From Candidatus Poribacteria bacterium (GTDB lineage Bacteria; Poribacteria; WGA-4E; WGA-3G), in contig CBDAUI010000002.1 of assembly GCA_965200205.1 (NCBI GenBank), positions 599,218-663,217 of the forward strand: a stretch of 64,000 bases of DNA. The letters are read 5' to 3'. The notes under the pieces were generated by a model. The model was not told where the DNA came from. It searched no databases and was given only the letters and a program-made list of their open reading frames with translations. The translations under genes and the position numbers were made by a program. Positions 3,308-56,740 of the stretch are shown here, piece after piece; positions within the stretch are counted from its first letter, which is position 1; each line of letters opens with the position of its first letter.

Positions 3308-3453
3308 GTTTTTAGCCGTCAGCCATCAGTTTTCAGTTGGCTGATAACTGACAATGACAACCATTGAAACTGATGGCTGGTTGCTGATCGCTGACGGCTG
3401 CCAACTAAATTCTATGGACAATTCAACAAGCGTTGTGGTATACTATATACACT

Positions 3454-5259
3454 ATGTCAACGAATCTTGAAAACATACGGAATTTCTGTATTTTAGGACA
3501 CATCGACCACGGGAAAAGCACACTCAGTGACCGGTTTATTGAGCATACGAACACGCTCGCCGAGCGCGAGATGCGGGCACAGGTGCTTGACCTGATGGAC
3601 CTGGAGCGTGAACGCGGTATCACTATTAAAGCGACCGCTGTTAAACTCCACTATCCTGCTACCGACGGAAACCGTTACGAGCTTAACTTGATTGATACGC
3701 CGGGACACGTCGATTTTACCTACGAGGTCTCACGTAGCCTTGCGGCGTGCGAAGGCGCGATTTTAATTGTTGATGCCGCCCAAGGCGTTGAAGCACAAAC
3801 TTTGGCAAACGCCTATCTTGCCATCGACAACGACCTCGAAATTATCCCGGTCGTCAATAAAATAGATTTACCGACGGCGCGCCCTGATGAAGCCAGACGA
3901 CAGATAGAAGAGGTTATCGGCATCCCCGCAGACGACGCACTCCTCGTGAGTGCGAAAATGGGGATCGGTATCCCTGCTATATTGGAAGCAGTCGTCAATC
4001 GTATCCCCGCACCTACCGGTGAAACAGAAGCACCGTTGAAAGCACTTGTGCTCGATTCTGTGTACGATAACTATCGCGGTGTCATCATGTACACCCGAAT
4101 TTTCGATGGCAGCGTCAAACCGGGTGATAAGATCCAGCTCATGAAGACGAGACGTGCTTATGAGGTTGAAGAGGTCGGTATCTTCACACCAGAGATGCAC
4201 CCAGCGACGGGTTTGGACACCGGTGCAGTCGGTTATCTCATCGCAGGCATCCGGGATATAGACAATGCGAAAATTGGCGATACAATCACGCACCATAAGA
4301 AACCGACGGCTGCGCCGCTGCCCGGCTATCGTGAAATGAAACCGCTTGTGTTCAGCGGTCTGTATCCGGCAGATACGAACCAATTTCCGGCGTTGCGAGA
4401 GGCACTCGAGAAACTGCGTCTCAACGATTCCTCCTTCAATTTTGAACCCGAAACTTCTGTCGCACTCGGCTTCGGTTTTCGGTGCGGTTTTCTCGGATTG
4501 CTCCACATGGAGATCATCCATGAACGTCTTGAACGTGAATTTGGACTTGAACTCGTCCGGACAGCACCGAGTGTGATGTACCGTGTCTATTTAAAAACCG
4601 GTGAGTACATATCTGTTGATAACCCTGCACACCTCCCAGAGCCGAATAATATTGAACATATTGAGGAGCCGTATGTCAATATTGACATTATCGTGCCGCG
4701 CGAGTACATCGGCAATGCGATGGAACTTTGTCAGAAGCGGCGGGGTGTATATAAACGGATGAACCAATTGGACGCAAGTCGTGTACAATTGCTCTATGAA
4801 CTTCCGCTCAGCGAAATGTTGACTGATTTTTACCCGAAACTGAAGTCCTTGACGCGTGGATACGGATCATTGGAATACGACATTGGCGCGTATAAACCTG
4901 AAAAGTTAGTGAAACTTGATGTGCTGCTTAACGGCAATCCGGTGGACGCGCTCTCTACGATTTTACCACGCGACACAGCGGAAACACGTGGAAAGGCGTT
5001 GGTGACGAAATTAAAAGAGGTAATACCGCGTCAGATGTTTGAGGTACCGGTTCAAGCGGCGATTGGTAACAAAATTGTCGCACGTGAAACTGTACGCGCC
5101 CTCCGAAAAAATGTTACAGCGAAATGCTACGGGGGTGATGTATCGCGAAAACGGAAATTGTTAGAGAAGCAGAAAGAGGGTAAAAAGCGGCTCAAGCAGA
5201 TCGGTAGGGTTGACGTACCGCAAGAAGCGTTCACAGCGATGCTCGCAACTGATGAATAA
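3454..5259 (+). CDS. lepA: Elongation factor 4 (LepA)
   Basis: [21 protein letters not shown]-domain and ~600 aa length; conserved lepA-lepB synteny. Confidence 0.95.
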
Positions 5260-5286
5260 TACCAAATCTAAATAACAATATAATGG

Positions 5287-6072
5287 ATGTGCCCGCAAAT
5301 GAACAAAACAATACTATCTAAACAGGAAAAAATAAAAAAATGGTTGCGAGAGCAGGCACTGCCTTTTGTCGTTTTATTGATTCTCATGTTCGGTTTTGTC
5401 CGTCCTTTTGTTGTTGAGGCGTATAGAATCCCTTCTGGCTCGATGGAGGATACACTGCTTGTTGGTGACCATATTTTCGTGTGTAAGTTTATCTATGGCG
5501 TTAAAATCCCCGGCACAGAGATAAAAATCTTTGATGTCCATCAACCTGCGCGCGGCGATGTCTTCGTCTTTATTCCATCACATGACGAGCGACATTTTAT
5601 CAAGCGTATGATAGCCATTGAAGGCGATACCGTTGAGACGCGTGGTGATACGCTTTATGTAAACGGTGAACCAGTTGATGATAGCCACTACACGAAATAT
5701 ATGAAATTTAGCCACTTTAAAAGAGATTTTCCGCCATTCCGAAGTCCAGAATATATACCGGCAGGTGAGAATTTCGACGATTATACTTTAACCGCAAGTC
5801 AATTCCGACGTGAGTTTCCCGATGGTAAGTCGTTTGTTGTGCCGAAAGGGATGGTTTTTGCGATGGGTGATAATCGCGATCTGAGCAGCGATAGTCGAGC
5901 TTGGGGACCGGTATCCGTAGATGACATCAAGGGACAGGCTTTCATGATTTGGTGGTCGGTTGCGGATCGTCCCGTAAAGTTCTGGGAGGTTTGGAAATTG
6001 GTGAGCAATATACGGTTTAATCGAATCGGCAAGCTGATCCGTTCTGAACCGGAATCGTTCAAAGCAAACTAA
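5287..6072 (+). CDS. lepB: Signal peptidase I
   Basis: S26 motifs IPSGSMEDTLLVGDHIFV (Ser box) and GDNRDLSSDSRAWGPV (Lys/Asp box); N-terminal TM helix. Confidence 0.9.
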   Translation: MCPQMNKTILSKQEKIKKWLREQALPFVVLLILMFGFVRPFVVEAYRIPSGSMEDTLLVGDHIFVCKFIYGVKIPGTEIKIFDVHQPARGDVFVFIPSHDERHFIKRMIAIEGDTVETRGDTLYVNGEPVDDSHYTKYMKFSHFKRDFPPFRSPEYIPAGENFDDYTLTASQFRREFPDGKSFVVPKGMVFAMGDNRDLSSDSRAWGPVSVDDIKGQAFMIWWSVADRPVKFWEVWKLVSNIRFNRIGKLIRSEPESFKAN

Positions 6073-6118
6073 ACCGGAAGAGGAGAGCATACTTTATTCG
6101 TAAAGGCGATACAATATC

Positions 6119-6886
6119 ATGAGTGATAACGACATCCAATTATCTAAATGGCAAAAATTTCGGAAAACCGTTACATGGGAATATACACAAGTAATCGTTG
6201 TGGCACTCATTCTCGTTTTCGGGTTCATACGTCCTTTCGTCGTTGAGGCGTTCAAGATTCCCTCCGGTTCAATGGAAGACACGCTCCTTATCGGGGATAG
6301 AATTCTGGTCTGTAAATTTATCTACGGCATTAAAATCCCGGGCACAGACATCAAGGTTCTCGATTTCCATAAGCCTGCCCGTGGCGACGTTTTCGTTTTC
6401 CTGCCACCGCATGACCGAGAACGAAACTTCATCAAACGCATCGTAGCGGTCGAAGGGGATACGATTGAAACACGCGGCAATACACTCTACGTGAACGGTG
6501 AAGCCGTTGATGATGGACACTATGCAAAATATGTTGCTTTCAGCCACTTTAAGAAAGATTTTCCGCCGTTCCGTCAACCCGAGTATCTGCCGGATACTGA
6601 GGAATTCTCCGATTATACCTTAACCTCGAGTCAGTTTAGACGCAAGTTTCCTGACGGCAAGTCGTTTACAGTCCCGAAAGGTAAGGTTTTCGCGATGGGA
6701 GACAACCGCGACCAGAGTAGCGATAGCCGCTCCTGGGGACCCGTAGATGTCAGCGACATTAAGGGGCAAGCGTTTATGGTGTATTGGTCATCTAATATGC
6801 GTCCGATAAAGATATGGGAAGTCTGGAAACTGGTTGGGAATGTCCGGTTCAATCGGATTGGTAAACTCATTCACGCGCATCGTTAA
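6119..6886 (+). CDS. lepB: Signal peptidase I, tandem paralog
   Basis: Same S26 motifs (IPSGSMEDTLLIGDRILV; GDNRDQSSDSRSWGPV); ~75% aa identity to the upstream copy by eye. Confidence 0.9.
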   Translation: MSDNDIQLSKWQKFRKTVTWEYTQVIVVALILVFGFIRPFVVEAFKIPSGSMEDTLLIGDRILVCKFIYGIKIPGTDIKVLDFHKPARGDVFVFLPPHDRERNFIKRIVAVEGDTIETRGNTLYVNGEAVDDGHYAKYVAFSHFKKDFPPFRQPEYLPDTEEFSDYTLTSSQFRRKFPDGKSFTVPKGKVFAMGDNRDQSSDSRSWGPVDVSDIKGQAFMVYWSSNMRPIKIWEVWKLVGNVRFNRIGKLIHAHR

Positions 6887-6921: not shown

Positions 6922-8862
6922 ATGCATCAAGATCAACGCCACGTTATCATCGGAACCGCAGGACATGTTGACCACGGGAAAACAGCACTCGTTGGCGCGC
7001 TCACCGGTATGGAGACAGACCGACTCAAGGAAGAACGCGAGCGCGGCATGTCTATTGAGTTGGGTTTCGCTTATTTCGATTTACCGGATAACTCACGTGC
7101 CGGTATCGTTGATGTACCCGGACACGAAAAATTCATCCGCAGTATGCTCTCCGGTGCCTACGGTATGGATATTGTTCTCTTTGTTGTCGATGCGAAGGAA
7201 GGCGTACAGGAACAGACGCTCGAACATTTGGCAATTCTGGACCTGCTCGGAATCTCGAACGGTATCCTCGTCATGACAAAATCTGACTTGGCAACCGCTG
7301 ATGAATTGGCTGAAGCCGCTGAAATGACACAAGAGATGCTCGTCGGTACAAGCCTCGAAGATATACCGACTGTCAGTGTTTCTGCAATAACCGGTGCTGG
7401 CATTGAAACGTTGAAGCAGACAATTGTTGAGCAGGTGACACTCGCAACGAAATCGGAAGAGAATGACGGTATTCCGAGATTATATGTTGATCGCGTGTTT
7501 ACTGTTCAAGGCTTCGGCGTTGTTGTAACGGGGACACTTATCGGTGGCTCCATTAATCGAGAGCAGCGGATGGTACTGCTACCGCAAGGTGATGTCGTTC
7601 GGGTTCGCGGGATACAGGTACACAATGAACCTGCGTCGGTCGCTTACGCGGGTCAGAGGACAGCCTTAAACCTCTCAGGGATGTCTGCTCAGGACATCCA
7701 GCGCGGCGATGTCCTCTGTCCTATCGACTATTCACAAGTGACCGACAACATAGACGTGTCTTTACAAGTGTTGTCTTCGTTTCCGCGAATCATTGAGCAT
7801 TGGAGCCGTTTCCGCGCGTATCTCGGTACCCGTGAGATATTTTGTCGGTTAATCCTGCTGGTGGATGAGGCGATTCTCCCCGGAGATAAAGTACAGGTAC
7901 AACTCCGTTTAGAACAACCGATTTTGACGTTTAGGGGCGACCGAATTATCATACGCGATTTCTCGGCACAACATACAGTCGGTGGCGGCGAGGTGATCAA
8001 TCCGTTTGCGCCGAAGCATAAACGATTCACGCCAGAGACCATTGCGACTTTAGCAGCGTGGGAAGAAGCCGATGACGCGCAGATCGTCAATATCGTACTG
8101 GCGAATAGCGAAACTCTCTGCGTTCCGGAATCGTTTCTCTATTACTATCTGCCGCACTCGCAAACGGATGTGAAAGCCATTTTAGACATGCTCAAGGCAG
8201 AAGGGAAAATTGTCCGTTGGGTGGAATCTGGGAGGCAACCCATCGTCTCGGATGCAGAACGGACGGAAACAGTTAAGGCACAAATGGTAGACGCGCTTAG
8301 CGCGTTTCACGAGGCGCAGCCGCTCCTTGCAGGGCAAAATGCCTCACAACTTCGCCGAAAACTAAGCCTCGATGAACAGAGTTTTGAAAGACTCGCGAAC
8401 CGACTCATTAAGGAGCACCAACTCGTTAAAGATGGGAATTTACTCCGGTTAGCCTCTCACGAAATCCAGTTCTCTCAAGAAGAGGAGACTGCGAAAGAGA
8501 AATTAGAACAACTGTTTTTGGAAGCCGGTATGAATACGCCGACGCTAAATGAACTCAGCACACTGCTGCCAGAATATACACCGAAAGTTCTTGAGTCTAC
8601 ATTTTACGCGCTTTTAAACTTGGGACGGTTTCTTAAAATAGCAGAAAACTTTTTCATCCATAAAACAAGATTTGAGGAAATCAGCGACACATTAACGACA
8701 TATCTACGTGAAAATGGGACGATAACTGTTGCGGAGTTCCGAGAAACCGCCGGGACTTCGCGGAAGTATGCCGTACCTTTTTTAGAGTACTGCGATACGC
8801 AGAATCTTACGGTGCGCGATGGGAACATCCGAAGGTTACATCCACGGCATTTGGAAACATGA
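6922..8862 (+). CDS. selB: Selenocysteine-specific elongation factor SelB
   Basis: [13 protein letters not shown]...DVPGHEKF G-domain with a SelB-type long C-terminal winged-helix extension (646 aa); tRNA-Sec lies immediately downstream. Confidence 0.9.
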
Positions 8863-8883: not shown

Positions 8884-8977
8884 GGGGGAGGATAGGGTCC
8901 GGTGGCCCTACCGGTCTTCAAAACCGGATAGTCCATACACGTGGATTGGTGGGTTCGACTCCCACCCTCTCCCGCCA
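8884..8977 (+). tRNA. selC: tRNA-Sec (selenocysteine tRNA, anticodon UCA)
   Basis: 94 nt. 8-bp acceptor stem GGGGGAGG/CCTCTCCC (one G-U). Anticodon stem CCGGT/ACCGG with loop CTTCAAA, anticodon TCA at 8918-8920. Long variable arm. 5-bp T-stem GTGGG/CCCAC with TTCGACT loop. Discriminator G plus encoded CCA. The 8/5 acceptor/T geometry is the bacterial tRNA-Sec form. Confidence 0.85.
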
Positions 8978-9093
8978 TCGGCTGAGAAATAGCCCATTTT
9001 TGAAAGGTTCGTGCCTTACCGAGATCTTCCTGACAGTTCCCGTTAGGGCGAAATTAAAAAATGCTGAAAACGCTCCCCATAGTTGATACCCCC

Positions 9094-9975
9094 ATGATTC
9101 GCACAAAAGCAGCGCAAAACCGACATCCGGCATGGATAAAGGCGCGAATTCCCGGCGGCGGTAGTTACGCTGAACTGAAGAAACTCATGCGGGATCTACA
9201 ACTTCATACCGTCTGTGAAGAGGCGCGATGCCCGAATATAGGCGAATGTTGGAACAGTCGCACCGCAACCTTCATGATATTGGGAGATGTTTGCACGCGG
9301 CGATGTATGTTTTGCGCTGTGAAAAAAGGGAATCCTGATGGAAATGTTGATACCGATGAACCGCGACGGCTCGGGGAAGCGGTCGGTTATCTAAAACTGA
9401 ACCATGTTGTGATTACGTCCGTCAACCGTGATGATCTTAGCGATGGGGGCGCGAGTGTTTTCGCTGAATGTATCGCCGAAGCGCGGAAACATCGCCCCGG
9501 ATGCACTGTAGAGGTTCTTATCCCAGACCTTGAAGGGAATTGGGATGCACTCGGCGTTATCGTGAAAGCCAGACCCGAAGTGCTGAACCACAATACTGAG
9601 ACCGTACCACGTCTCTATCGTCGTGTCCGTCCGTATGCAAATTACCAGCAGACGCTAACGCTCCTACGAATCAGTAAGCGGCTTGATACCGAGATGCTCA
9701 CAAAATCCGGGCTCATGGTCGGTTTAGGCGAAACTGTGACTGAGCTCTTGGAGACAATGCAAGACATTCGTCGTACCGATTGCGATATTCTTACGATAGG
9801 GCAATATCTCTCACCATCTCCACGGCACCTGCCGATCCAACGCTACTATACGCCTGAAGAGTTTAATGAACTCAAGGAAGCCGGTATGGAAATGGGGTTC
9901 CGACATGTAGAGTCGGGACCGCTCGTTCGGAGTTCTTACCACGCAGGCGAGCAAGCGCGAATAGGGCAGTGCTAA
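9094..9975 (+). CDS. lipA: Lipoyl synthase
   Basis: CEEARCPNIGECW auxiliary Fe-S cluster motif and radical-SAM CTRRCMFC motif; start may instead be 9061. Confidence 0.9.
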   Translation: MIRTKAAQNRHPAWIKARIPGGGSYAELKKLMRDLQLHTVCEEARCPNIGECWNSRTATFMILGDVCTRRCMFCAVKKGNPDGNVDTDEPRRLGEAVGYLKLNHVVITSVNRDDLSDGGASVFAECIAEARKHRPGCTVEVLIPDLEGNWDALGVIVKARPEVLNHNTETVPRLYRRVRPYANYQQTLTLLRISKRLDTEMLTKSGLMVGLGETVTELLETMQDIRRTDCDILTIGQYLSPSPRHLPIQRYYTPEEFNELKEAGMEMGFRHVESGPLVRSSYHAGEQARIGQC

Positions 9976-10217
9976 CAGGCGTGTCCATTTCAGTATTTAG
10001 ACACCATTTAGAACTACGATTTCTGATCGAAAATTTTCGGTATTTACATAAAACCTGATTTTTGCTAAACTACTTAGGAGTTGGATGCACTCTGTTTGCA
10101 GGCGAGGTTTCATGAAGATTAAAAAATTAATTCGGTAATTTATTGACGAAGCCGATGCAGTTGCAAACCGTACTATTAAGTGTCAATTTTAGAAATAACA
10201 ACCGTCGCAGACCCAGG

Positions 10218-10262
10218 TCTGGTAGGTTCGGTTTGCAACCGAACCGGATTCTACGCGGAAAT
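10218..10262. repeat. Dispersed ~45-bp palindromic hairpin element, copy 1
   Basis: tcYGGTAGGTTCGGTTTGCAACCGAACCGGATTCTACGCGGAAAT; 44/45 identical to 55615-55660; 9-bp stem GGTTCGGTT/AACCGAACC. Confidence 0.7.
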
Positions 10263-10329
10263 ATTGAAGACTTCAAGAGCCTCTTCAGTCGCGTCGCGAC
10301 GTTATATTTATAGCAGCTGAGGAAAGTGA

Positions 10330-11136
10330 ATGATCCGTGTAATTATTAATGGGGCATGTGGTCGTATGGGACGGCTCATCATTCAAGGTGTGACGCAACA
10401 GACGGACATGGAAATTGTTGGCGCGATTGAATACCCCGAACACCCACAAATCGGTAGTGATGCCGGTGTCGTCGCAGGTATTGGCGAGATTGGTATCGCT
10501 ATTACAGGCGCGCTTGAAGATGTACTTGAAGATGCAGATGTCATCATCGAGTTTTCAAAGCCCGAAGTAACCGTGCAGCACCTCAGACAGGTTGTTGATA
10601 CTGACAAAGCGATGATCATCGCAACAACTGGATTCAACGCTGACGAACTCACGACAGTTAAGCAACTTGCCTCTCAAATTCGCTGTGTGATGGCACCGAA
10701 CATGAGCCTCGGTGTTAACGTGATGATTCAGGCACTTGAGCTCATTGCTAAAGCCCTCGGGGATGACTACGATATTGAGGTTATAGAGGCACATCACAAT
10801 CACAAAGCAGATTCACCGAGTGGAACCGCACTCCGTCTGGCAGAGACCGTCGCTGCGGCATTAGAACGCGACTTAGATGAGGTCGGGGTTTACGGGCGCC
10901 ACGGTATTGTCGGTGCGAGACCGAAGAAACAGATCGGTATCCATGCCGTGCGCGGTGGCGATATTGCAGGCGATCATACGGTACTGTTTGCAACCGAAGG
11001 TGAACAATTAAGTGTTGTCCACCGTGCCCACAGTCCTGAAGCTTTTGCCAAGGGGGCGATCCGTGCAGCGAGATGGGTTATTGATGCCCCTAAAGGACTG
11101 CACGATGTCAGCGAAGTCCTTTTTCAGAAGTCGTAG
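10330..11136 (+). CDS. dapB: 4-hydroxy-tetrahydrodipicolinate reductase
   Basis: N-terminal GACGRMG Rossmann motif and EAHHNHKADSPSGTA catalytic motif. Confidence 0.9.
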   Translation: MIRVIINGACGRMGRLIIQGVTQQTDMEIVGAIEYPEHPQIGSDAGVVAGIGEIGIAITGALEDVLEDADVIIEFSKPEVTVQHLRQVVDTDKAMIIATTGFNADELTTVKQLASQIRCVMAPNMSLGVNVMIQALELIAKALGDDYDIEVIEAHHNHKADSPSGTALRLAETVAAALERDLDEVGVYGRHGIVGARPKKQIGIHAVRGGDIAGDHTVLFATEGEQLSVVHRAHSPEAFAKGAIRAARWVIDAPKGLHDVSEVLFQKS

Positions 11137-11166
11137 GAACTAACTATAGGTTCAAAGGAATCTCTG

Positions 11167-11976
11167 ATGATCCGTGTTGTTATTATTGGTATTTGTGGTC
11201 GTATGGGACAGTGTCTCACGCGCTGCATTACTCAACAAACCGATATGCGGCTCGTTGGTGCTATCCAATATCCATCGCATCCACGCATAGGCAGTGATGC
11301 CGGTGTCGTCGCAGGTATTGGTGACATCGGTGTAGCTATCGCAGGTGAACTTGGGGATGTGCTTGAAAACGCGGATGTCGTTATTGAGTTTTCAAAACCT
11401 AAAGCGACACTCGGATACCTCCGACAGATTGTCAATACAGATAAAGCTATCGTTATTGGCACAACTGGATTTACCGGCGATGAACTCGCAACTGTCAAAG
11501 AACTCGCCGCACAGACTCGCTGCGTGATGGCACCGAATATGAGTCTCGGTGTCAATGTGATGATTCAGGCACTCGATTTAATTGCCAAAGCCCTTGGAGA
11601 TGATTATAATATTGAAGTCATAGAAGCGCATCATAATCATAAAGCAGATTCACCAAGTGGGACAGCATTCCGATTAACAGAGACACTCACCACAGCACTC
11701 GAACGAGATTTAGACGAGGTAGGCATTTACGGTAGACACGGTATTGTCGGTGCGAGACCGAAGAAACAGATCGGCATTCATGCCGTGCGCGGTGGTGATA
11801 TTGCCGGTGATCATACGGTACTGTTTGCGGCAGAAGGTGAACAATTAAGTGTCGTCCACCGCGCGCACAGTCCCGAAGCATTCGCGAAAGGTGCGATTCG
11901 TGCCGCGAGATGGGTCGTTGATGCCCCTAAAGGATTACACGATGTCAGCGAAGTCCTTTTCCCAGAGCAGCCCTAA
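11167..11976 (+). CDS. dapB: 4-hydroxy-tetrahydrodipicolinate reductase, tandem paralog
   Basis: Same motifs; ~80% identical to the upstream copy by eye. Confidence 0.9.
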   Translation: MIRVVIIGICGRMGQCLTRCITQQTDMRLVGAIQYPSHPRIGSDAGVVAGIGDIGVAIAGELGDVLENADVVIEFSKPKATLGYLRQIVNTDKAIVIGTTGFTGDELATVKELAAQTRCVMAPNMSLGVNVMIQALDLIAKALGDDYNIEVIEAHHNHKADSPSGTAFRLTETLTTALERDLDEVGIYGRHGIVGARPKKQIGIHAVRGGDIAGDHTVLFAAEGEQLSVVHRAHSPEAFAKGAIRAARWVVDAPKGLHDVSEVLFPEQP

Positions 11977-14805: not shown

Positions 14806-14988
14806 CTGTTGTGGTTTTAGGGTATGTTGTGGAATCCAAAAGAAAACTAACAATCACAAGATGTTAACCGAATACTGATAACCGACAACCGATAACTATT
14901 AAAATTGATAACTGAAAGCGTAGCGTACTGATAACTAATAACTATTCCCTCTAACAACTGAGAACTACTAAAAAGGTAAATTTAAAAT

Positions 14989-16217: not shown

Positions 16218-16323
16218 CTCGCAGTGAGAGTTAAAAAGTGTCCAGTGGTTTCCAGTTAAAAGTTAACAGGAAAAGAGAGTTCTGGTAACTGGACACTGAT
16301 AACTGTTAACTAATCCTCTCTGG

Positions 16324-24914: not shown

Positions 24915-25274
24915 TAACGTAAGTTTGATAAATACTTAAGACAGACGCATTTCCTCTTAAAGTCCCCCTGATAAGGGGGATTTAGGGGGTTGTATTTCTA
25001 AAAATTGCCGCTTTTTTCACGGAATATATTGCTTTTTGCCCAATTTGCGTCTGCCTCGGAAACCTCTAATGTTTTTTCAAACTGGCGTTATAATTAAAAC
25101 CGTTGATTTCGCGAATCATTAAAATTTTCGCGTCCTTTCTTTGTCAATTACCGTATGATTATCCCCCTTTAAGTGATCTTTCTACCTTAACGACTTTCAA
25201 CACGACACACGCGAATTTTGCCTTGAGGGCACCTAAATTTCAAAAGCCTTCCGACAATAACAGGAGACATTTTT

Positions 25275-30261: not shown

Positions 30262-30367
30262 TAAGAAAAATGCTGCATTAGTACGCGACGCAATTTTGTG
30301 CTATAATGGTAATGTGTAACGAACACAGTGTGGTGTTTTATAACAACATTTCAGAAGGAGAAGTACC

Positions 30368-30661
30368 ATGTCATATTCTGATGCTACCTCTGAAACCATC
30401 GCCGCCCGCGGCGAAGAAATCTATCAGCAGTACCGCGAAGAACTCGAAGCTCAACACAAAGGTCAGTTTTTTGTAGTTGACATTGAAACGGAAAACTATG
30501 AAATCGCCGATGAGGATTTGGAAGCGACAAAACGTCTGCTTGCTAAGAATCCCAAGGCTATGACTTACGGGGTGCGAATCGGATACCCGGCCACCCACGG
30601 TATCGGCTTCAGCTTCGTAGAATGGAATGTGGAATACTATAATGATAACAGGGAAAATTAG
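30368..30661 (+). CDS. Small conserved hypothetical protein (copy A of a duplicated pair)
   Basis: 97 aa; ~65% identical to the 31022-31288 product (shared SETIAARGEEIYQ...FVVDIETENYEIADEDLEAT); preceded by a TGnTATAAT extended -10 at 30298-30306. Confidence 0.6.
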   Translation: MSYSDATSETIAARGEEIYQQYREELEAQHKGQFFVVDIETENYEIADEDLEATKRLLAKNPKAMTYGVRIGYPATHGIGFSFVEWNVEYYNDNREN

Positions 30662-31010
30662 AGACGAACGTGTAGCTATCATTGAAGTGGAAGTGATCGG
30701 CTTAAATCAACGCGCGAAAATTGAGGCAACTCTTGATACCGGATTTACGGGCTATCTGACACTACCAGAGTTTTTAGTTGACTACTTAAGGCTTCCATAG
30801 ATTGGTACTCGGCACACAATTATTGCTCATGGAAGAGCAGTAATCCTTGACCTGTATCTTGCCAAAGTGATTTGGCACGGCAAAGAACGCGATATAGAAG
30901 TTCTGCAAACAGACAAGCAACCGTTAATCGGTATGTCGTTGCTTCGCGGAAGTCGTGTAACACTTGATGTTGTGCCAGATGGCGACGTAACGATTGCTCC
31001 GCTGCGATAG
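30642..31010 (+). pseudogene. Retropepsin-like (clan AA) aspartic protease gene with an in-frame TAG at 30798-30800
   Basis: MITGKIRDERVAIIEVEVIGLNQRAKIEATLDTGFTGYLTLP carries the catalytic D-T-G. The same frame continues after the TAG with ...VILDLYLAKVIWHGKERDIEVLQTDKQPLIGMSLLRGSRVTLDV, a retropepsin C-terminal-like segment. The ATG overlaps the 3' end of the upstream small gene. Confidence 0.55.
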
Positions 31011-31021
31011 GGAGAATCACT

Positions 31022-31288
31022 ATGCTATATTCTGATGAGACCTCCGAAGCCATCGCTGCCCGCGGTGAAGAAATCTATCAGTCCTTGAAGGATGAGCTTG
31101 AATCTCAATACAAAGGCAAAATTTTTGTAGTTGACATTGAAACAGGGAACTATGAAATTGATGATGAGGATTTAGAAGCTACAGCCTGTCTCTTTGCGAA
31201 GAATCCCGACGCTGTTACTTATGGTTTACGCATTGGCTTCGTACCTATCTATAAACTCGGTTTTAGATCTTACGGTTGGAAACCTTAA
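31022..31288 (+). CDS. Small conserved hypothetical protein (copy B)
   Basis: 88 aa paralog of the 30368-30661 product. Confidence 0.6.
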   Translation: MLYSDETSEAIAARGEEIYQSLKDELESQYKGKIFVVDIETGNYEIDDEDLEATACLFAKNPDAVTYGLRIGFVPIYKLGFRSYGWKP

Positions 31289-31373: not shown

Positions 31374-32920
31374 ATGTGGCATATCGCAACTTTTGCTTTT
31401 CTTCTATTCTGCATAACAACCGTAGTTCCCGCCCAAACTGTTGAGCAAATTGCTGAAAAAGCATTAGCGGCTACGGTCTACTTGGAGATGAAGGACAGCA
31501 CCGGCAAAACCATCGGATTTGGTAGTGGTTTCTTCGTGACGGAAAATCTGATCGCTACGAACTATCACGTCATAGAAGGTGCAGCAACTGGTACTGCACG
31601 ATTAGTGCAAAACACTCGAAATACGCCCAAGCTTAACCCTGAGTTGAATAAAGCCCACATTAATTTCATTAATAAATACGAGACATACACTATCGAAGGG
31701 TCTACTGCTACTGACGAAACAAACGATCTTGTACTCTTAGAGGTATCGACACGTATCAAGGATCCAGATTTATTGAAAATTTATAGGCAACTATTCCCTA
31801 TCCAACCTCTGTCTATTGGTAACAGCGCCGAAGTCAAAACTGGGACACTGGTATACGTTGTGGGAAATCCAAAAGGCTTAGAAGGTACATTCTCAAGTGG
31901 CATTATCAGCAGTCGTCGCAGGAGGCTCACTGAGGAACGCCTACAGATGACAGCTCCAGTTTCCCCGGGGAGCAGCGGTGGGCCTGTCCTAAATAATAAA
32001 GGTGAAGTAATTGGAATCGCCTTTATGACTATTGAAGGCGGACAGAATCTTAATTTTGCGATTCCCTCAAACTACCTTAAAACACTACTCCTTCAATCTG
32101 GAACAGTAAAACCCCTGTCAGAGAACGAACAATCCATCTCCGCGGAGACGTATTTCCTACGAGGCGAGGCGATGAGGGAGATGGAACTATATGAGGAAGC
32201 AATTGCAGCTTATGACCAAGCAATACGTCTAAAACCAGATTATGTTGAAGCATATAACGAACGGGGCGTTGCCAAAATTATGCTAGGACAATATTTCGCC
32301 GCTATTGCTGATTTTGACCAGGCAATACAACTCAAACCCGATTATGCAGATGCATATACACATCGTGGAACTGTGAAGACAATTCTAGACCAAAATTCTG
32401 CCGCGATTGCCGATTATGATAGGGCAATTCAAATAACACCTGATGATGCCTTTGTGTACCATTTTCGTGGTATGGCAAAAGAAACTTTGAAACAATATTT
32501 TGCTGCTATCTCCGATTTTGACAAGGCCATAAAACTAAAACCTGACTTTGCCGAAGCATATCACAAGCGGGGGAGATAAAGATCGTTCTCGGTCAACCTC
32601 GTGCTGCCATCTCTGATTTCAACAAAGCCATAGAATTAAAACCTGATGATGCTGAAATATACTATAGTCGGGGATCCGTGAAAGGATTTCTGAAGCAATA
32701 CTTTGGTGCCATCTCTGACTTTGACAAGGCTATAGAATTAAAACCTGATTTTGCCAAAGTATACGTCAGTAGAGGCATTTCAAAGCACAAACTGGGACAA
32801 ACTTGGGAGGCAAAACGGGATATCCAAATAGGGTTGAAAATTGCTGAACGGACAGGTGATACAGATACCAAGGATCTTGCCGAGCTTACACTTCGTTTTC
32901 TTGAAACCAGTGGAAGATGA
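31374..32920 (+). CDS. Secreted trypsin-like (S1) serine protease with C-terminal TPR repeats; frameshifted at a G5 homopolymer near 32569-32573
   Basis: Signal peptide MWHIATFAFLLFCITTVVPAQT. S1 domain (GFGSGFFVTENLIATNYHV; TAPVSPGSSGGPVLN with the catalytic Ser). 34-aa TPR repeats continue seamlessly across the frame change (…AEAYHKRG | EIKIVLGQPRAAISDFNKAIELKPDD…). Confidence 0.7.
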
Positions 32921-33195
32921 AAACTAAATGTTATGTTTGCTATGCAACGCGAACTTGACTGTATGCCGTCAGACGAACGCTACGCAAGGTTTGAACAGCG
33001 TCAAAAAGAGATGGAAGTACTATCGCTTTTGAGGATAATCAGGGTAATACGGACGAACATATCGATGAACTTCATGGGATTTGGGGTGATATTTATCAGA
33101 CCGTTGGTCTCCAACAAGGACTAAGTACCGAGGCTCTAAGATTTGGTGCAACACTCATATCACCTACTCCACTCAGTAAGCCCCTTGGCGAGGAA

Positions 33196-34029
33196 ATGGC
33201 TGTTACAAATTTCACCGAACAAGTTGGGGCAAACACGTCCGAAGCTCTTAAGGTTTCAAAGTGGCTGCTAAAAGTTACAAAAGCAGTCGATAAGTTTCTG
33301 GGAGATATGCGGGGTTCCAGAGAAGCCGTAACCGAAATTGCCCATGCGCGGTTGCTGGCGGTAGCAATTATCTTATCAGATTTTTGTTTGAATGATAAGA
33401 CAAAGCTTCTTAATGAATGGGAGAAAACAACGTTCAGGATTTTCGGACTCCTTGATAAGGATGCTCGCACAGGGGTTGGAAATTATGTGAGATTGGCTCG
33501 CGATATCTGGAAGAATCCTGAGTTAAGTGCCGATGACATTTTAGATAAGATACAGGAAATTGGAACGTTGTATCACATTGACGATTTACTCAATCAACCG
33601 GAAGGCACGAATTGGTACGAAGGTTGGGAGACAGAACTTCGATATTTGTTGTTCCGTTACGAGGAGCATCTGGCTAAACAGCTGGGACAAAAGTTTGATA
33701 ACGAGCAGTGGCGGCGTATGTGGGAAGATTCACCTTCACGCTCTGTTGAACACATTTTTCCACAGTCGAAAGGTAGCCAGGAGCCCTTAAGAGATAGTCA
33801 AGAAGGTATTTACGTTCATAGACTTGGAAACCTTTTGCTCTTACCACCAGGCCTCAATTCAAAGCTGGGGAATAAGGATCCGGAAGATAAGGCACCTTGC
33901 TATAGGCAGACCGGACTTTTCAGTGCTGCCGATGTCGCGCGAACGATTGATGAGTATGGTTGGGGAGCAGATCAGATTAAAGAACGAGAGCAGCGGATGA
34001 TAACATGGATTCGCGAGAAATGGGGATAG
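33196..34029 (+). CDS. DUF1524 (GmrSD C-terminal, His-Me finger/HNH-like nuclease) domain protein
   Basis: SVEHIFPQSKG...VHRLGNLLLLPPGLNSKLGNK matches the DUF1524 signature; no DUF262 N-terminal domain present. Confidence 0.6.
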   Translation: MAVTNFTEQVGANTSEALKVSKWLLKVTKAVDKFLGDMRGSREAVTEIAHARLLAVAIILSDFCLNDKTKLLNEWEKTTFRIFGLLDKDARTGVGNYVRLARDIWKNPELSADDILDKIQEIGTLYHIDDLLNQPEGTNWYEGWETELRYLLFRYEEHLAKQLGQKFDNEQWRRMWEDSPSRSVEHIFPQSKGSQEPLRDSQEGIYVHRLGNLLLLPPGLNSKLGNKDPEDKAPCYRQTGLFSAADVARTIDEYGWGADQIKEREQRMITWIREKWG

Positions 34030-34260
34030 GGAGGGATTACATCTCGTTCATGAACCTCCTATAAATTTTCGCGGATATGACGGGTCAGTTCTGTGCAAGA
34101 TAGAGCAACCGATTTCCCAATGCCGAAGCACGCCCTCCGGGGTCTAATCTCAACTGCCCAGATGCCGAGTTCTCGCGTAAAGTAAAATCTATGAATACAA
34201 GATTAATTAGCACAAGTCGTAAACATCGGAGGTGCTGAACAATAGCACTTTAAGGGGAGT

Positions 34261-36084
34261 TTGTTAATGGCACATCACCACAACCCAGCATCCGTGGATG
34301 CCTACTTCCGACAAGGCAATTCGCTCTACGAGATGGAGCTCTACGAGGAAGCTATTGATGCCTATACCAGCGCAATCCGGTCTAATCCGGATACTATTAC
34401 CGTCTTCTACAACCGAGGCCTCGCCAAGGCGAAACTCGGACGATATGCCGACGCTATAAAAGACTTTGACATCGCCATACGCCGGAAACCCGATTTTGCT
34501 GAAGCCTACTACAGTCGCGGAAACGCTAACGCCAACCTTAAACAACACCGCCAAGCCGTCACTGAATACGATAAGGCAATACGATACAAACCCAATTACG
34601 TCGAAGCTTACATGGACCGGGGTGCTGCGAAACTTTTCCTCGGTCAGCATGCTGAGGCCCTAAAAGACTATGACTTCGTTATACAACACAGCCCCAATGA
34701 AGTCATAGCATACTATAATCGCGGATTGATCAAAGCTGAACTCGGACAATACGCAGCCGCTATCGCGGATTTTGATGAAGCCATACAACGCAATCCGAAT
34801 GACACTGAGGTTTACATCGACCGGGGAACTGCGAAGTTTAACTGCCATCAATATGCCCTAGCTGTCCAAGACTATGACAAAGCGATACAACGCAATCCGG
34901 ATAGAGCTGATACGTACTACAAGCGCGGAGTTGCAAAGAGTAGACTCGGTCAACACGCAGCGGCTCTTGAAGACTATGACAAAGCGATACAACTCAAGCC
35001 CGACTATGCTGAAGCCTATGATAGCCGAGGCGTGACAAAAGCCGCCCTTGGCGAGTATACTGAAGCTATCAAAGATTATGACGTGGCGATACGATGCCAA
35101 CCCCACTCTGCCGAAACCTATAACAATCGAGGGGTCGCGAAACAGGAACTCGGTCAATACGCAGCGGCTCTTGAAGACTATGACAAAGCGATACAACTCA
35201 AGCCTGATTATATCAAAGCTTATAACAATCGGGGGGTCGCGAAACGGGAACTCGGTGAATATGCCGCTGCTGTCGCTGATTATGACATCGCCATCCGATG
35301 TGACCCCGATTATGCGGAAGCCTATTGTAATCGTGCGGCTGCGAAGACGAAACTCGGTCACCACGATGCCGCTATTGCAGATTTAGACACAGCAATACAT
35401 CTCAATCCGAATAATGCTGCCCCGTATTACAATCGCGGGGCTGTGAAGGTCACCCAGGGCGAACCCGTAGCCGCTATCGCGGATTTTGATGAAGCCATAC
35501 AACGCAATCCTGACCTTATCGAGGCCTATTACAATCGCGGATTTGCTAAGGGGAATCTTTGTCAATATACCGAGGCAATACAAGACTTTGACATCGTGAT
35601 ACAGCGGAAACCTGAGGATGCACAAACCTATCTCATGCGCGGGAGTCTAAAGTCGGCCCTCGGTCAATATGCCGAGGCTATACAGAACTTTGACACTGCC
35701 CTACAATACAACCCTGATGATGTCAAAATTTACGTCGCTCGCGGTACTGCAAGGGCTGCCTGTGGTCAATATACTGAAGCCGTAGAAGACTTTGACATCG
35801 CACTTCAGTATAACCTCGAAATTGACTTTGTTTACCTCTACCGCGGACATGCCAAAGCAAAACTCGGCCAATACCCGGACGCTATACAGGACTTTGACAC
35901 GGCGGCACGTCTCAATCCGAATGACCCCCAACTCCCTCTCCTAAAGGCAGGAGCGAAATTAGAATTAGAGAGAGCTCAGGAGGCGAAACAGGATCTTCGC
36001 ACGGCTTTGAGACTCGCGAAAAAGAAAGGCGATGCGGACCTGATAACCCACATTGAGAAAACATTGTGTAGCCTCAAAGAGTAA
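34261..36084 (+). CDS. TPR repeat protein (~16 regular 34-aa repeats)
   Basis: Near-periodic AEAYYNRG.AK..LG.Y..AI.DYD.AI...P repeats; 102-bp periodicity is also visible at DNA level (e.g. near-identical segments at 34945-35004 and 35147-35206). Confidence 0.85.
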   Translation: MLMAHHHNPASVDAYFRQGNSLYEMELYEEAIDAYTSAIRSNPDTITVFYNRGLAKAKLGRYADAIKDFDIAIRRKPDFAEAYYSRGNANANLKQHRQAVTEYDKAIRYKPNYVEAYMDRGAAKLFLGQHAEALKDYDFVIQHSPNEVIAYYNRGLIKAELGQYAAAIADFDEAIQRNPNDTEVYIDRGTAKFNCHQYALAVQDYDKAIQRNPDRADTYYKRGVAKSRLGQHAAALEDYDKAIQLKPDYAEAYDSRGVTKAALGEYTEAIKDYDVAIRCQPHSAETYNNRGVAKQELGQYAAALEDYDKAIQLKPDYIKAYNNRGVAKRELGEYAAAVADYDIAIRCDPDYAEAYCNRAAAKTKLGHHDAAIADLDTAIHLNPNNAAPYYNRGAVKVTQGEPVAAIADFDEAIQRNPDLIEAYYNRGFAKGNLCQYTEAIQDFDIVIQRKPEDAQTYLMRGSLKSALGQYAEAIQNFDTALQYNPDDVKIYVARGTARAACGQYTEAVEDFDIALQYNLEIDFVYLYRGHAKAKLGQYPDAIQDFDTAARLNPNDPQLPLLKAGAKLELERAQEAKQDLRTALRLAKKKGDADLITHIEKTLCSLKE

Positions 36085-43153: not shown

Positions 43154-43264
43154 TCACTAAAAAACGTGAGTCCTATCAACTATGCGCAACACTGCAGGTG
43201 GGGTTTGTAACCCCACCTACTATAAAGATTCATCAAAAAACGTGAGTCCTATCAACTATGCGCG
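43154..43264. repeat. Two 34-bp direct repeats flanking a perfect hairpin
   Basis: TCAYYAAAAAACGTGAGTCCTATCAACTATGCGC at 43154-43187 and 43230-43264 (33/34 identical) around the hairpin GGTGGGGTTTGTAACCCCACC (43197-43217). Confidence 0.7.
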
Positions 43265-44691: not shown

Positions 44692-44814
44692 GAGAATGGT
44701 TATCAGTTACCAGTTATCAGGCATCAGTTAAAGAGACCGCTGATGCAATCCAGATCCCCTTAACTGATAACTGTTTTCACTGCGAAGCATGATAATTGAT
44801 GACGCTTAGGAAAT

Positions 44815-54544: not shown

Positions 54545-55597
54545 ATGCTTTATTCAATTATTGTAAGCGCGGGCTTAGAAAATATGGCGCGCGAGGAACT
54601 ATCAGAACGCTTCGGGAACACCGGACATCTGAAGAACATCGAACGCAAACCGCAGCGCCTCATTTTTCAATACACGGGGAACCCGCGTGAATTACTATCT
54701 CTCCGAACAGCCGAACACCTCTTCCTCATCCTGAAGCAGCTGCCGAAAATGACACGTTCACGCAGTTCATTGGCAGTGCTGAGTGGTTCACTCACACGCT
54801 TCAATTTCAGAGAGATGTCCGAATGCTGTCGGCAGGTCGGTATCAATCTCCGAAAGCGGATGCCGTTCCGTGTGACGAGCCGACTCTCAGGGAAACGGAA
54901 CTTCCGACGCATAGACCTACAACGTGTTATTGAACAGGCACTGTTAGCGCGTGGGTGGTATCTAACTTCTGGACGCTCAGCGTTGGATGTCTGGGCAGAA
55001 GTACACGGAGACGACGGCTATATCAGCGTCAAACTCTCTGGGAACGATATGGCACAGCGTCCGTACAAACAGGCACATATCCCGGCATCCCTGAAACCGA
55101 CGGTGGCGTACAGCATGGCGCGCCTCTCACGTCCACACCCGACCGATGTCTTCTTAGATGCGATGTGTGGTGCCGGCACTATCCTCTTAGAGCGTGCCCT
55201 GATGGGGCGTTATGATTACTTAATCGGCGGCGATGTCTCCACAGACGCGTTGGATGCGACCCTCGCGAACTTCGGTAGGAAACATCAACCGCGCCAATTT
55301 TTTCATTGGGACGCACGCAAATTGCCGCTGCAGCGAAGGACAGTCGATAAGATCGTCTCTAATCTTCCGTTTGGTGAGACTATCGGAAATCTGCCGCAAC
55401 TGACGAATCTATACCGCTACACGCTGAGGGAATATGCCCGCGTCCTGAAACCGAGAGGGCGGATGGTACTCTTGACTTCACAGCGTACGACCCTCGACGA
55501 CGAATTGGAACGGTTACACTTTCTTGATGTCCGTCAAAGGTTGACGGTAGATGTCCGCGGAAAAAAGGCGTGGATATACGTCATCCGCTTCGCCTAA
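54545..55597 (+). CDS. THUMP-domain class I SAM-dependent RNA methyltransferase (RlmL/Trm14-like)
   Basis: N-terminal THUMP-like region; SAM-binding motif DAMCGAGTILLE; motif IV NLPFGE. Confidence 0.75.
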   Translation: MLYSIIVSAGLENMAREELSERFGNTGHLKNIERKPQRLIFQYTGNPRELLSLRTAEHLFLILKQLPKMTRSRSSLAVLSGSLTRFNFREMSECCRQVGINLRKRMPFRVTSRLSGKRNFRRIDLQRVIEQALLARGWYLTSGRSALDVWAEVHGDDGYISVKLSGNDMAQRPYKQAHIPASLKPTVAYSMARLSRPHPTDVFLDAMCGAGTILLERALMGRYDYLIGGDVSTDALDATLANFGRKHQPRQFFHWDARKLPLQRRTVDKIVSNLPFGETIGNLPQLTNLYRYTLREYARVLKPRGRMVLLTSQRTTLDDELERLHFLDVRQRLTVDVRGKKAWIYVIRFA

Positions 55598-55614
55598 AAC
55601 GTTTCCTAAACCCA

Positions 55615-55660
55615 ATCCGGTAGGTTCGGTTTGCAACCGAACCGGATTCTACGCGGAAAT
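55615..55660. repeat. Dispersed ~45-bp palindromic hairpin element, copy 2
   Basis: 44/45 identical to 10218-10262; overlaps the last 4 codons and the stop of the Gfo/Idh/MocA gene at 55649-56740. Confidence 0.7.
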
Positions 55661-56740
55661 CTCCGGCACTCTCACCGCGACCTCTTTACCCGCTGCGTGC
55701 GAACGGAAGATACCGTCCATAATTACGTTTGTGAGCAGGACACCCTCTGGCGGTATCGGGGACGGTCCATTCGCTTTCACGCCTTCTCGGAACGCGATCA
55801 TCTGTGCCGCCCAATTATCAGATGCCGGGAATCCTGAGAACTGGATGGTCGTCATCCCTTCCGGTGGATTCGGTTCCGCTGTTAATCCCTCCGATTCGAC
55901 AAACGTCTTGAGTTCACCGTTGTATGCATCGGCATAAATAACCGGTCCACCCAACGAGAAACCGGCTTTCGTCCCCAGATGGAAGTTACCGCCGAGTGAG
56001 TCCTGATGCACTGCCCAAGAGATTTTGAAGACCATCACGCCACCATTCTCAAACCGTATCCACGCCGCACCGAATTCCTCGACATCCATGATCCCCTTAA
56101 ATCTCGGATCCTGCTGTGAGATGTAATCCTGAGTGATCGCGGAGACCCGTACCGGTTTCGGATACCCCATCGCATACAGCGACGCGTGCATGTTATAGAC
56201 ACCGATATCGACGGTTGCACCGGCACCTGCGGTCTTCTTGTAGATGAATGTATGTCCGGGATTCCCGCGGCGTCTGCAGCCTGCGGATTCGGAGTAGTAG
56301 ATATCACCGAATATTCCCGCGTCATACGCCTTCCTTATGAATTGGAGTCTCGGATCAAACGTGGGATTCAGACCGATTTGTAAGATTTTGCCTGATGCCT
56401 TTGCTGCCCGCACCATTGCGGTTGCATCAGACAGCGTTGCTGCCATCGGTTTTTCGCAGAGGACGTGTTTACCAGCTTTCAACGCTGCCACTGTCGGTCG
56501 TCGATGTCCCTGATTGTAAGTGCAGACACTCACCGCATCGAGTCCGTCCATTTCGAGCATTTTGTTGTAACTCGAAAAAGCGTTCTTTCTCGGAACACCC
56601 CACTCATCAGCGGCTCGGTTCGCTTTACTTTTAATGATGTCGCAGACCGCAACAATCTCGAAACCACCGACTTTCTCATAGGTACTCCGGTGTGCTCGTG
56701 AAATACCACCTGTACCAATAATACCAACTCGGACTGTCAT
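55649..56740 (-). CDS. Gfo/Idh/MocA family oxidoreductase
   Basis: MTVRVGIIGTGGISRAH Rossmann N-terminus; ~85% identical to the adjacent paralog. Confidence 0.85.
   Translation of the reverse strand: MTVRVGIIGTGGISRAHRSTYEKVGGFEIVAVCDIIKSKANRAADEWGVPRKNAFSSYNKMLEMDGLDAVSVCTYNQGHRRPTVAALKAGKHVLCEKPMAATLSDATAMVRAAKASGKILQIGLNPTFDPRLQFIRKAYDAGIFGDIYYSESAGCRRRGNPGHTFIYKKTAGAGATVDIGVYNMHASLYAMGYPKPVRVSAITQDYISQQDPRFKGIMDVEEFGAAWIRFENGGVMVFKISWAVHQDSLGGNFHLGTKAGFSLGGPVIYADAYNGELKTFVESEGLTAEPNPPEGMTTIQFSGFPASDNWAAQMIAFREGVKANGPSPIPPEGVLLTNVIMDGIFRSHAAGKEVAVRVPEISA

Follow-up and report, generated by a model that had tools for sequence, protein, structure and literature searches.

Dispersed GTAG-tagged hairpins of Candidatus Poribacteria and their probable assignment to a REP/RAYT system

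To our knowledge, systems composed of repetitive extragenic palindromes (REPs) and REP-associated tyrosine transposases (RAYTs) have been studied almost entirely in Proteobacteria. A GTAG-type REP is a palindrome of 20-40 nt that can fold into a stem-loop and has a GT(A/G)G head at one of its ends. In the GTAG REP super-family, more than 90% of the members display the tetranucleotide GTAG, stems are 6-13 bp and loops 2-3 nt long; these REPs form head-head or head-tail dimers and groups, and they abut or overlap open reading frames (ORFs), often supplying a TAG stop (Di Nocera et al. 2013, PMC3733652). The enzyme TnpA_REP binds the single-stranded REP and leaves the complementary strand unbound. 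It needs GTAG, plus a loop base in short-REP systems, cleaves at CT (or CA) 5' or 3' of the hairpin via a 5'-phosphotyrosine and can transfer strands (PMC8266576). Here, 64 kb of contig CBDAUI010000002.1 from a Candidatus Poribacteria bacterium, referred to as the window, were analysed for a dispersed hairpin previously predicted to belong to a mobile REP-like family. These repeats are very probably the GTAG-type REP of a Candidatus Poribacteria REP/RAYT system, a unit called REPtron by Corneloup et al. (PMC8266576).

Group 3 REPtrons, as exemplified by the REPSm/TnpA_REP system of Stenotrophomonas maltophilia (SMAG; PMC8266576, PMC2817692), resemble the Poribacteria repeats in their GTAG immediately adjacent to a short, perfect palindrome whose loop has 3 nt, in one strongly conserved loop position, in a RAYT gene placed between inverted REPs and in compensatory stem variants. 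REPSm is 23 nt long with an 8-bp stem, whereas the Poribacteria REP is 24 nt long with a 9-bp stem that is AT-richer (GGTTCGGTT) and has ~10 conserved nt on each side. The hosts also differ, being Gammaproteobacteria for REPSm and a candidate phylum of sponge symbionts for the Poribacteria REP, which is known here from sequence alone. The Poribacteria REP corresponds to the description of the GTAG super-family, including a REP-derived TAG stop in a flanking ORF, a Gfo/Idh/MocA gene designated Gfo1. A point of difference is that the Gfo1 stop originates not in the GTAG head itself but in the flank on the tail side (GGATTCTAC, complementary strand). The REPs and bacterial interspersed mosaic elements (BIMEs) of Escherichia coli, with their RayT (YafM), are similar in forming extragenic mosaics of REPs and conserved short motifs in which the RAYT gene is embedded. 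However, the REP palindrome of E. coli is longer and imperfect and contains a bulge that is essential, and the Poribacteria linker modules (GTCAATTTTAG, ATGAAGATTAA-n6-TTAATTCGGTAATT and N5-GTA-N5'-ATGTTTATAGCA) have no sequence counterpart in E. coli.

Hairpin copies in the window and the family they belong to

The REP unit of the window consisted of a GTAG head and a perfect 9-bp stem (GGTTCGGTT/AACCGAACC) with a 3-nt loop, its core forming a perfect 9-3-9 palindrome; the head was present in all three canonical copies. The sequence GGTTCGGTT occurred seven times in the window versus 0.55 expected. An exact 42-mer (GGTAGGTTCGGTTTGCAACCGAACCGGATTCTACGCGGAAAT) was found at 10221-10262 and 55619-55660 (none expected, 100 shuffles), and the enclosing 45-mers at 10218-10262 and 55616-55660 displayed a single-base difference. 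The original prediction had described a 45-bp element at two sites. The repeat and its first coordinates were correct, the second start was 55616 and not 55615, and the length had to be revised: the unit is a 24-nt GTAG-REP, and the extra 17-21 nt match the flank that lies next to RAYT genes.

Copy 1 (10222-10245, plus strand) displayed GTAG at 10222-10225 and the stem-loop GGTTCGGTT-TGC-AACCGAACC at 10225-10245; it is preceded by lipA (9061-9975) and followed by a tandem pair of dapB genes, the first at 10330-11136. It was identical to the REPs bracketing RAYT genes in L097 and L027, the prefix L designating blocks or contigs from related genomes and metagenomes. Copy 2 (55620-55643, plus strand) occupied the 51-bp gap between a THUMP-domain methyltransferase gene (54545-55597, plus strand) and the convergent Gfo1 (55649-56740, minus strand). 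Its hairpin started 5 nt past the Gfo1 stop on the Gfo mRNA strand and 26 nt past the stop of the other gene, and full family similarity extended over 55608-55662 (plus strand), ending at ...GGAAAT inside the Gfo1 3' end. Copy 3 (60971-60994, minus strand) displayed GTAG on the minus strand at 60991-60994 and, in GTAG orientation, the loop TGA. Downstream of it lies an FGE/SUMF1-like gene (61007-61810), whose AAGGAG ribosome-binding site and GTG start (61007) are 3 nt and 16 nt away, respectively. This third hairpin had been taken for a merely related one at 60966-60988; it does exist, at 60971-60991 (60969-60991 with the leading CC), and, apart from one mismatch in the loop, it is an inverted copy of the same 27-mer (GTAGGTTCGGTTTGNAACCGAACCGGA), its core spanning 60968-60994.

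The count of three copies held for canonical ones, and two further copies had escaped notice. A relaxed search of the window uncovered a degenerate REP at 10154-10174, and a GTAG-tagged variant was present at 43197-43220 on the minus strand (GGTGGGGTTTGTAACCCCACC-TAC), with the compensatory stem GGTGGGGTT-TGT-AACCCCACC-TAC. The variant was bracketed by a 29-bp direct repeat (AAAAAACGTGAGTCCTATCAACTATGCGC, at 43160-43188 and 43236-43264) just upstream of an ORF starting at 43258; too long for a target duplication, this pair looks like a local tandem duplication taking in the variant REP. The 64 kb thus displayed three canonical, one degenerate and one variant REP, all with intergenic cores, the sole coding overlap being 12 nt of the copy 2 flank. 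A match with three mismatches inside dapB (10980-11000) was treated as chance, being conserved coding sequence. A possible REP remnant upstream of Gfo2, the tandem paralogue of Gfo1 (~57915-57950, TTGCAAACCGA), is not claimed here, comparison with the 88%-identical L037 being uninformative: 43 common nt are kept, then synteny breaks beside a full REP composite.

Genomes were scanned with GGTTCGGTTNNNAACCGAACC, one per species, and 98 blocks of 8 kb were listed as a lower bound. At least 96 blocks, belonging to 26 assemblies, contained the REP core; 23 of these assemblies were labelled Candidatus Poribacteria and three were unlabelled metagenome-assembled genomes (MAGs), and chromosome OZ244889.1 alone contributed at least 13 blocks. 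The only other matches among those listed, from Oscillospiraceae and Trueperaceae, lacked the flanking tag, and these two fit the handful expected by chance for 18 specified bases in 596 Gb. The family is thus distributed across the phylum, and with stems that keep pairing via compensatory variants it is neither restricted to the window nor devoid of structural conservation, the outcome that would have spoken against the original prediction.

The family consensus was 5'-(CCCAGGCCCG)GTAG-GTTCGGTT-TKY-AACCGAACC-(GGATYYTAC)-3', in which ~10 nt on each side of the hairpin (CCCAGGCCCG and GGATYYTAC) were conserved as well. Conservation was asymmetric between strands. The GTA-G tag was found on exactly one side in 124 out of 136 copies (91%), 108 out of 118 could be oriented by it, and 105 of these 108 GTAG-oriented copies displayed a loop starting with T. 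A one-sided unpaired tag together with a strand-specific loop base is the pattern expected if a protein recognises the hairpin on a single strand. When the pattern GGnnnGGTT...AACCnnnCC was considered, the three free stem positions were fully paired in 179 out of 203 hairpins. Seven compensatory combinations were observed, including TTC/GAA, TGC/GCA, CGA/TCG and CGG/CCG, the second commonest being GGTGCGGTT/AACCGCACC; mismatched stems combined the arms of two variants instead of displaying strand-specific G-U pairs.

The REPs were strongly extragenic: 116 out of 120 fell outside ORFs of at least 100 aa, which, according to a crude ORF caller, cover 81% of the locus DNA (binomial p ~1e-76). Their orientation to transcription was weakly biased (40:22, p = 0.03), and no bias was found relative to the upstream stop (38:29). 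At gathering score, Rfam matched only a tRNA-Sec in the window and only tRNAs, with no family for the element, in 18 REP-rich loci; the segment 10050-10340 gave no match at E <= 1.

RAYT genes between inverted REPs

A phmmer search with E. coli RayT (NC_000913) against all ORFs of the 98 loci returned three matches. A 158-aa gene in L097 (chromosome OZ244889.1) and L027 (PYJC01000174.1) was bracketed by REPs of exactly the window type, inverted and with GTAG outward, the left one lying ~35 nt before the start codon. On its inner side this left REP was flanked by GGATTTTACACGAAAACCTT, which also comes after the REP in copies 1 and 2 of the window. Both proteins matched Pfam Y1_Tnp (E = 3.5e-17) and the NCBIfam equivalog NF047646, 'REP-associated tyrosine transposase', with 123 bits (cutoff 80). 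Altogether, seven proteins were tested, which scored 106-139 bits with NF047646 and 31-54.5 bits with the IS200 model NF033573 (cutoff 55). Identity to E. coli RayT was only ~24-27%; the HUH motif (H-x-H) and the catalytic-tyrosine motif Y..Y.NPV were nevertheless invariant in the alignment. The nearest solved structures were IS200-like transposases.

A database search gathered 73 RAYT homologues, some of them named 'transposase [Candidatus Poribacteria bacterium]', and their 90%-identity clusters were each found on one to four contigs. Five homologue contexts were examined, and every homologue encountered there passed the RAYT model. Homologues at 73% and 64% identity were flanked by inverted GGTGCGGTT-type REPs (L109 and L111), those at 48-53% by different GTAG REPs (GTAGGAGGGGCTTCCCAGCCCC; GTAGGAGGGAACTCCGATTCCC), and the one at 68% (L110) adjoined GTAGGCGAGGATTGTATCCTCGCC. 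Diverged RAYTs therefore carry diverged flanking REPs, that is, enzyme and hairpin diverge together, as described for RAYTs and REPs by Nunvar et al. (PMC2817692). Further RAYT classes were encountered in Poribacteria-type MAGs (L010 at 4750-5650, L112 and L113), each with tandem arrays of its own GTAG REP (CTGTAGGAGCGATTTCCRAATCGCGAT; CGTAGGAGGGGCTTCCCAGCCCCGAC; CTGTAGGAGGGAACTCCGATTCCCGA). In L110 (1-1465), a TnpB-like gene (OrfB_IS605 / Cas12f-like TNB domain) was located directly upstream of the RAYT homologue and co-oriented with it.

The THUMP/Gfo site, composites and accessory modules

The Gfo1 3' end reads, on the minus strand, GTG CCG GAG ATT TCC GCG TAG with the stop at 55649-55651, and its tandem paralogue (56780-57865) ends GTG CCG GAG ATA TAG. 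Positions 55649-55657 supply the TAG stop and the Ala and Ser codons of Gfo1, the source of Ser-Ala-TAG being the tail-side flank of the REP, GGATTCTACGCGGA, read on the opposite strand. The predicted difference between VPEI and VPEISA was thus borne out by the codons of both 3' ends; the overlap with the repeat is real too, although it concerns three codons (Ile, Ser, Ala) and the stop rather than four codons.

A metagenome search with the THUMP protein yielded related loci, five of which have retained a convergent Gfo gene next door: L100 and L107 at 78% and L101, L102 and L106 at 57-59% identity. The window REP was absent from the THUMP/Gfo spacers of all five. The Gfo ends in related loci were VPEI-TAA, VPEI-TAG, VPEF-TAA and VPEF-TAA, which points to an ancestral end VPE(I/F)-stop and to acquisition of Ser-Ala-TAG in the window from the REP flank. 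The polarity of the VPEI/VPEISA difference is settled by these orthologues lacking the REP. An origin of the difference in tandem duplication was considered and rejected, the upstream regions of the paralogues sharing only the ribosome-binding site.

Other hairpins were encountered at the same place. The spacers of L101 and L102 displayed a different GC-rich hairpin, GGCGAGG...CCTCGCC, ~10-35 nt past the THUMP stop; its stem matches the REP class GTAGGCGAGGATTGTATCCTCGCC found beside the L110 RAYT homologue, and judging from these sequences different REP classes may occupy the same THUMP/Gfo site in different lineages. The spacers of L100 and L107 were occupied by an CCCCCTGATAAGGGGG element. 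A second dispersed hairpin repeat was present in the window at 24935-24995 (...GACGCATTTCCTCTTAAAGTCCCCCTGATAAGGGGGATTTAGGGGG, with stem CCCCCT/AGGGGG and loop GATA); the GACGCATTTCCTCTTAAAGTCCCCCTGATAAGGGGGATTTAGGGGG element fills the L100 and L107 spacers and was also found in L053, L008 (89% over 173 nt) and L067. The THUMP/Gfo site attracts or retains hairpins in several lineages.

Copy 1 was correctly placed upstream of dapB by the original prediction, which overlooked its inclusion in a BIME-like mosaic, the type-A composite, at 10152-10321 (plus strand, 170 nt), ending 9 nt before the dapB ATG (10330). The composite is made up, in this order, of the degenerate REP at 10154-10174, the linker ATTAAGTGTCAATTTTAG..., CCCAGGTCTG-GTAG-REP, the RAYT-proximal flank GGATTCTACGCGGAAAT..., a small hairpin (GTCGC-GTC-GCGAC, 10288-10300) and ATATTTATAGCA. 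The general layout [variant REP] ATAAGTGTCAATTTTAG-A-rich-AACCGCCTCGGACCCAGGCCCG-GTAG-REP-GGATTCTACGCGGAAACCTTGAAGACTTCAAAAACCTCTTCA-[N5 GTA N5']-GnnATGTTTATAGCA was conserved in 18 Poribacteria loci and in the window. An nhmmer profile built on these 19 composites matched the window at 10152-10321 (E = 1e-52, a score that is partly a self-match since copy 1 was included), at 55608-55662 (E = 1.1e-16) and, on the minus strand, at 60968-60997 (E = 2.5e-7). As indicated by these extents, copy 1 represents a whole composite and copies 2 and 3 are truncated. Independently of the profile, blastn found the window composite to be 85-87% identical to the copies in L040 and L028. A promoter-like TTGAAG-17-TAGAAT on the minus strand of the copy 1 flank was considered, and no promoter is claimed. 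Relative to downstream starts, the 3' module of the composite was co-oriented in 25 cases and opposite in 13, at inconsistent distances of 42-1181 nt.

Neighbouring REPs were arranged either in tandem (head-tail), mostly ~49 nt apart, or inverted with GTAG outward, as in 12 head-head pairs from related loci, six of which displayed an exact 85-nt spacer. The inverted doublet of L058 folds as single-stranded DNA into one long hairpin in which the REPs pair (-51.2 kcal/mol, z = -7.8). Such inverted pairs with a fixed 85-nt spacer and one long hairpin recall the REP doublets (REPINs) of Pseudomonas fluorescens (Bertels and Rainey 2011, PMC3116915). This likeness applies to the related genomes, whereas the window has no inverted doublet, its copies standing singly or, in one case, in tandem with a degenerate partner. 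Pseudomonas REPINs measure ~70-110 nt in total, and the Poribacteria spacer is longer than theirs.

The small downstream hairpin N5-GTA-N5', followed by ATGTTTATAGCA, displayed a constant GTA loop in 51 perfect instances and at least eight covarying stems (GTCCC, GTCGC, GTTCC, GCCCC, ATCCC, ACCCT, GTCCT and GCCCT). This module was found in many loci (e.g. L028, L040 and L046), often twice in tandem, with no clear orientation bias relative to genes.

A shared flank of 15 nt (TTAATTCGGTAATTT) had also been predicted. Two copies do exist, at 10127-10141 (one position off in the prediction) and 60944-60958, their recurrence being marginally non-random (at least two matches in 2 out of 100 shuffles), and they form part of a separate 30-nt module, ATGAAGATTAA-n6-TTAATTCGGTAATT, located on the plus strand at 10112-10141 and 60929-60958. 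A gap of 12 nt separates the second copy from REP copy 3, whose tail side it faces. In 815 kb of related Poribacteria loci the 15-mer core was matched 43 times, with a REP no more than 120 nt away in 19 cases, and the module also adjoins other hairpin classes (GCGAGGTTAGGAAACCTCGC..., GGAACGTGCGATGAATCGCAC... and CTGTAGGAGCGAGC...). Two tandem modules separate the RAYT stop codon from the right-hand REP in L109, and the layout at copy 3 (module, 12 nt, REP tail) matches this right end and recurs in L098 and L024. Window copies 1 and 2, for their part, are similar to the opposite end of the RAYT unit, the left or 5' one. A micro-ORF (ATG AAG ATT ... CGG TAA) in the module was rejected, its frame not being conserved across copies. 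Binding by the host proteins IHF, gyrase and Pol I counts among the traits of BIMEs, and the motif GATTAA-n4-TTA presumably resembles an IHF site, with two mismatches.

It is conceivable, though we regard it as doubtful, that the REP belongs to a phylum-wide set of interchangeable intergenic modules recruited by Poribacteria as a host system. With equal reserve, this set could include the 30-nt box, found beside at least four hairpin classes, and the N5-GTA-N5'/ATGTTTATAGCA hairpin; its members might perhaps serve as binding sites for nucleoid proteins or as 3'/5' RNA processing signals, roles that we likewise hold to be improbable. If such a set did exist, the four or more RAYT/REP pairs that diversify together in this one candidate phylum would form a natural panel for studying how RAYTs read their hairpins.

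Additional features of the window were noted. Heptamer-like runs (AACTGAT / AACCGAC / CAGTTAT) occurred in intergenic positions 14866-14894, 16287-16315, 59901-59943, 3315-3339 and 44702-44730, and runs akin to them (GGCAGTCAGCAGTCAGTAG, aactggcaactggcaactggca) were present in the spacers of L100 and L038. The gene selB (6922-8862) is directly followed by the tRNA-Sec (8884-8977; Rfam, 76 bits) and by lipA from 9061. Tandem paralogue pairs with 71-85% DNA identity were unusually numerous, comprising two dapB, two Gfo and two FGE/SUMF1-like genes and two more pairs (10330-11976, 55649-57865, 61007-62834, 5380-6718 and 30357-31236). Long arrays of 102-nt (34-aa) repeats at 32195-35925 are typical of TPR-repeat protein genes.

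Proposed mechanism, alternative explanations and significance

The mechanism proposed here is modelled on RAYTs of E. coli, Stenotrophomonas and Marinomonas. As single-stranded DNA, the REP would fold into its 9-bp hairpin, the substrate being GTAG-GTTCGGTT-TKY-AACCGAACC, and a RAYT (HUH/Y1 tyrosine nuclease), probably encoded in single copy, would bind the folded top strand, read the GTAG head and the loop, cleave nearby and rejoin strands. The CT in GGATTCTAC is a candidate 3' cleavage site. By such events single REPs, doublets and adjoining flank segments would spread through intergenic DNA, and the truncated copies 2 and 3 could result from partial transfer or later deletion. One truncated solo copy replaced the original stop codon of the Gfo/Idh/MocA gene and added Ser-Ala-TAG. 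The GTAG head, the palindrome, the extragenic location, the doublets and mosaics and the RAYT gene between inverted REPs all agree with the predicted REP/BIME-like family; continuing mobility, suggested by sequence comparisons of fairly distant relatives, catalysis by the RAYT on this REP and any role for the host are inferred extensions of this picture.

Several points weigh against this assignment. No RAYT gene was found within the 64-kb window, and the cognate enzyme is known from relatives only. The 'empty' THUMP/Gfo relatives are only 57-78% identical at the protein level and display a difference rather than a clean insertion or excision junction. CT is present 3' of the hairpin (GGATTCTAC) in only ~40% of the copies, which leaves the cleavage site uncertain, and a number above 100 copies per genome, as is typical of REPs, was extrapolated from the three to five copies in 64 kb.

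The explanation that survives best besides a REP/RAYT system holds that the hairpins are mainly RNA elements selected by the host (3'-end stabilisers, Rho-independent-like terminators or modulators of translation near stops) and that their spread is incidental; we consider it rather unlikely. The position of copy 2 close behind the stops of two convergent genes speaks for it, as does the different GC-rich hairpin held by the orthologous spacers of L101 and L102 at the same place. E. coli REPs within ~15 nt of a stop codon are said to reduce translation (Liang and co-workers, Mol Cell, 2015). REPs are also mostly found downstream of ORFs, often providing stop codons (Di Nocera et al., PMC3733652). 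However, copies 1 and 3 precede genes, a start codon being 16 nt away in one case, and both the weak orientation bias to transcription and its absence relative to the upstream stop fit poorly with a function in RNA. Mismatched stems did not contain strand-specific G-U pairs, and conservation goes beyond structure, the unpaired GTAG and the loop base fitting recognition by a protein. As to terminators, the REP hairpin lacks a T/U run and was not called terminator-like by a scan, whose sole such call in 9900-10400 was the small hairpin at 10288-10300. A role in RNA is nonetheless compatible with a REP/RAYT system as a secondary one. In particular, it is plausible that copy 2 acts as a 3'-end hairpin (mRNA protection or termination between convergent genes), since other hairpins occupy that spacer in relatives.

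It is very improbable that the repeats are ends or relics of ordinary IS200/IS605 insertion sequences, with multicopy TnpA and possibly TnpB, instead of parts of a domesticated RAYT system. The flanked protein does belong to the Y1_Tnp fold family, its best solved relatives are IS200-like, and the OrfB_IS605-type gene directly upstream of the L110 homologue would suit such an origin. Against this, all seven proteins passed the RAYT equivalog and stayed below the IS200 cutoff, the GTAG head is typical of RAYT substrates, homologue clusters were confined to so few contigs, and the repeats are 24-nt hairpins that far outnumber the gene, not full copies of an insertion sequence. Miniature inverted-repeat transposable elements, which would descend from a DDE-type insertion sequence and show both terminal inverted repeats and target-site duplications, are scarcely credible. 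The repeats are indeed short, dispersed and intergenic, and inverted AATTCGGTAATT / AATTACCGAA arms delimit some of the composites (L098), but copies 1 to 3 displayed no target-site duplication at their borders. What is conserved is one hairpin tagged on a single side, not a pair of termini, and an HUH/Y1 enzyme was the sole protein encountered between copies of the repeat. Palindromic operators of a transcription-factor regulon including dapB and the FGE-like gene, as the perfect 9-3-9 core and the two copies upstream of genes might suggest, can practically be dismissed, given one copy between two gene ends, hundreds of sites beside unrelated genes in 26 assemblies, tandem and inverted doublets, an asymmetric GTAG head and REPs on both sides of a transposase-like gene.

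Full-text literature searches retrieved no paper connecting Poribacteria with REPs, RAYTs or REPINs, and neither Poribacteria nor this REP stem is mentioned in the text of the Di Nocera survey (PMC3733652). This is a well-known kind of repeat in a phylum for which the searchable literature does not describe it, and the Poribacteria REP/RAYT system does not overturn current understanding. It accounts for the two-residue C-terminal extension of Gfo1 and for the near-alike upstream regions of unrelated genes, and it provides an annotation rule for hundreds of intergenic hairpins and small 'transposase' genes in Poribacteria MAGs. Being common to several species, the repeat is also a warning to assemblers and binners. 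As a comparative set, the different RAYT classes and the distinct GTAG REP of each could help to define recognition rules, and the system extends the range of domesticated RAYT transposases to the uncultivated sponge symbionts Candidatus Poribacteria.

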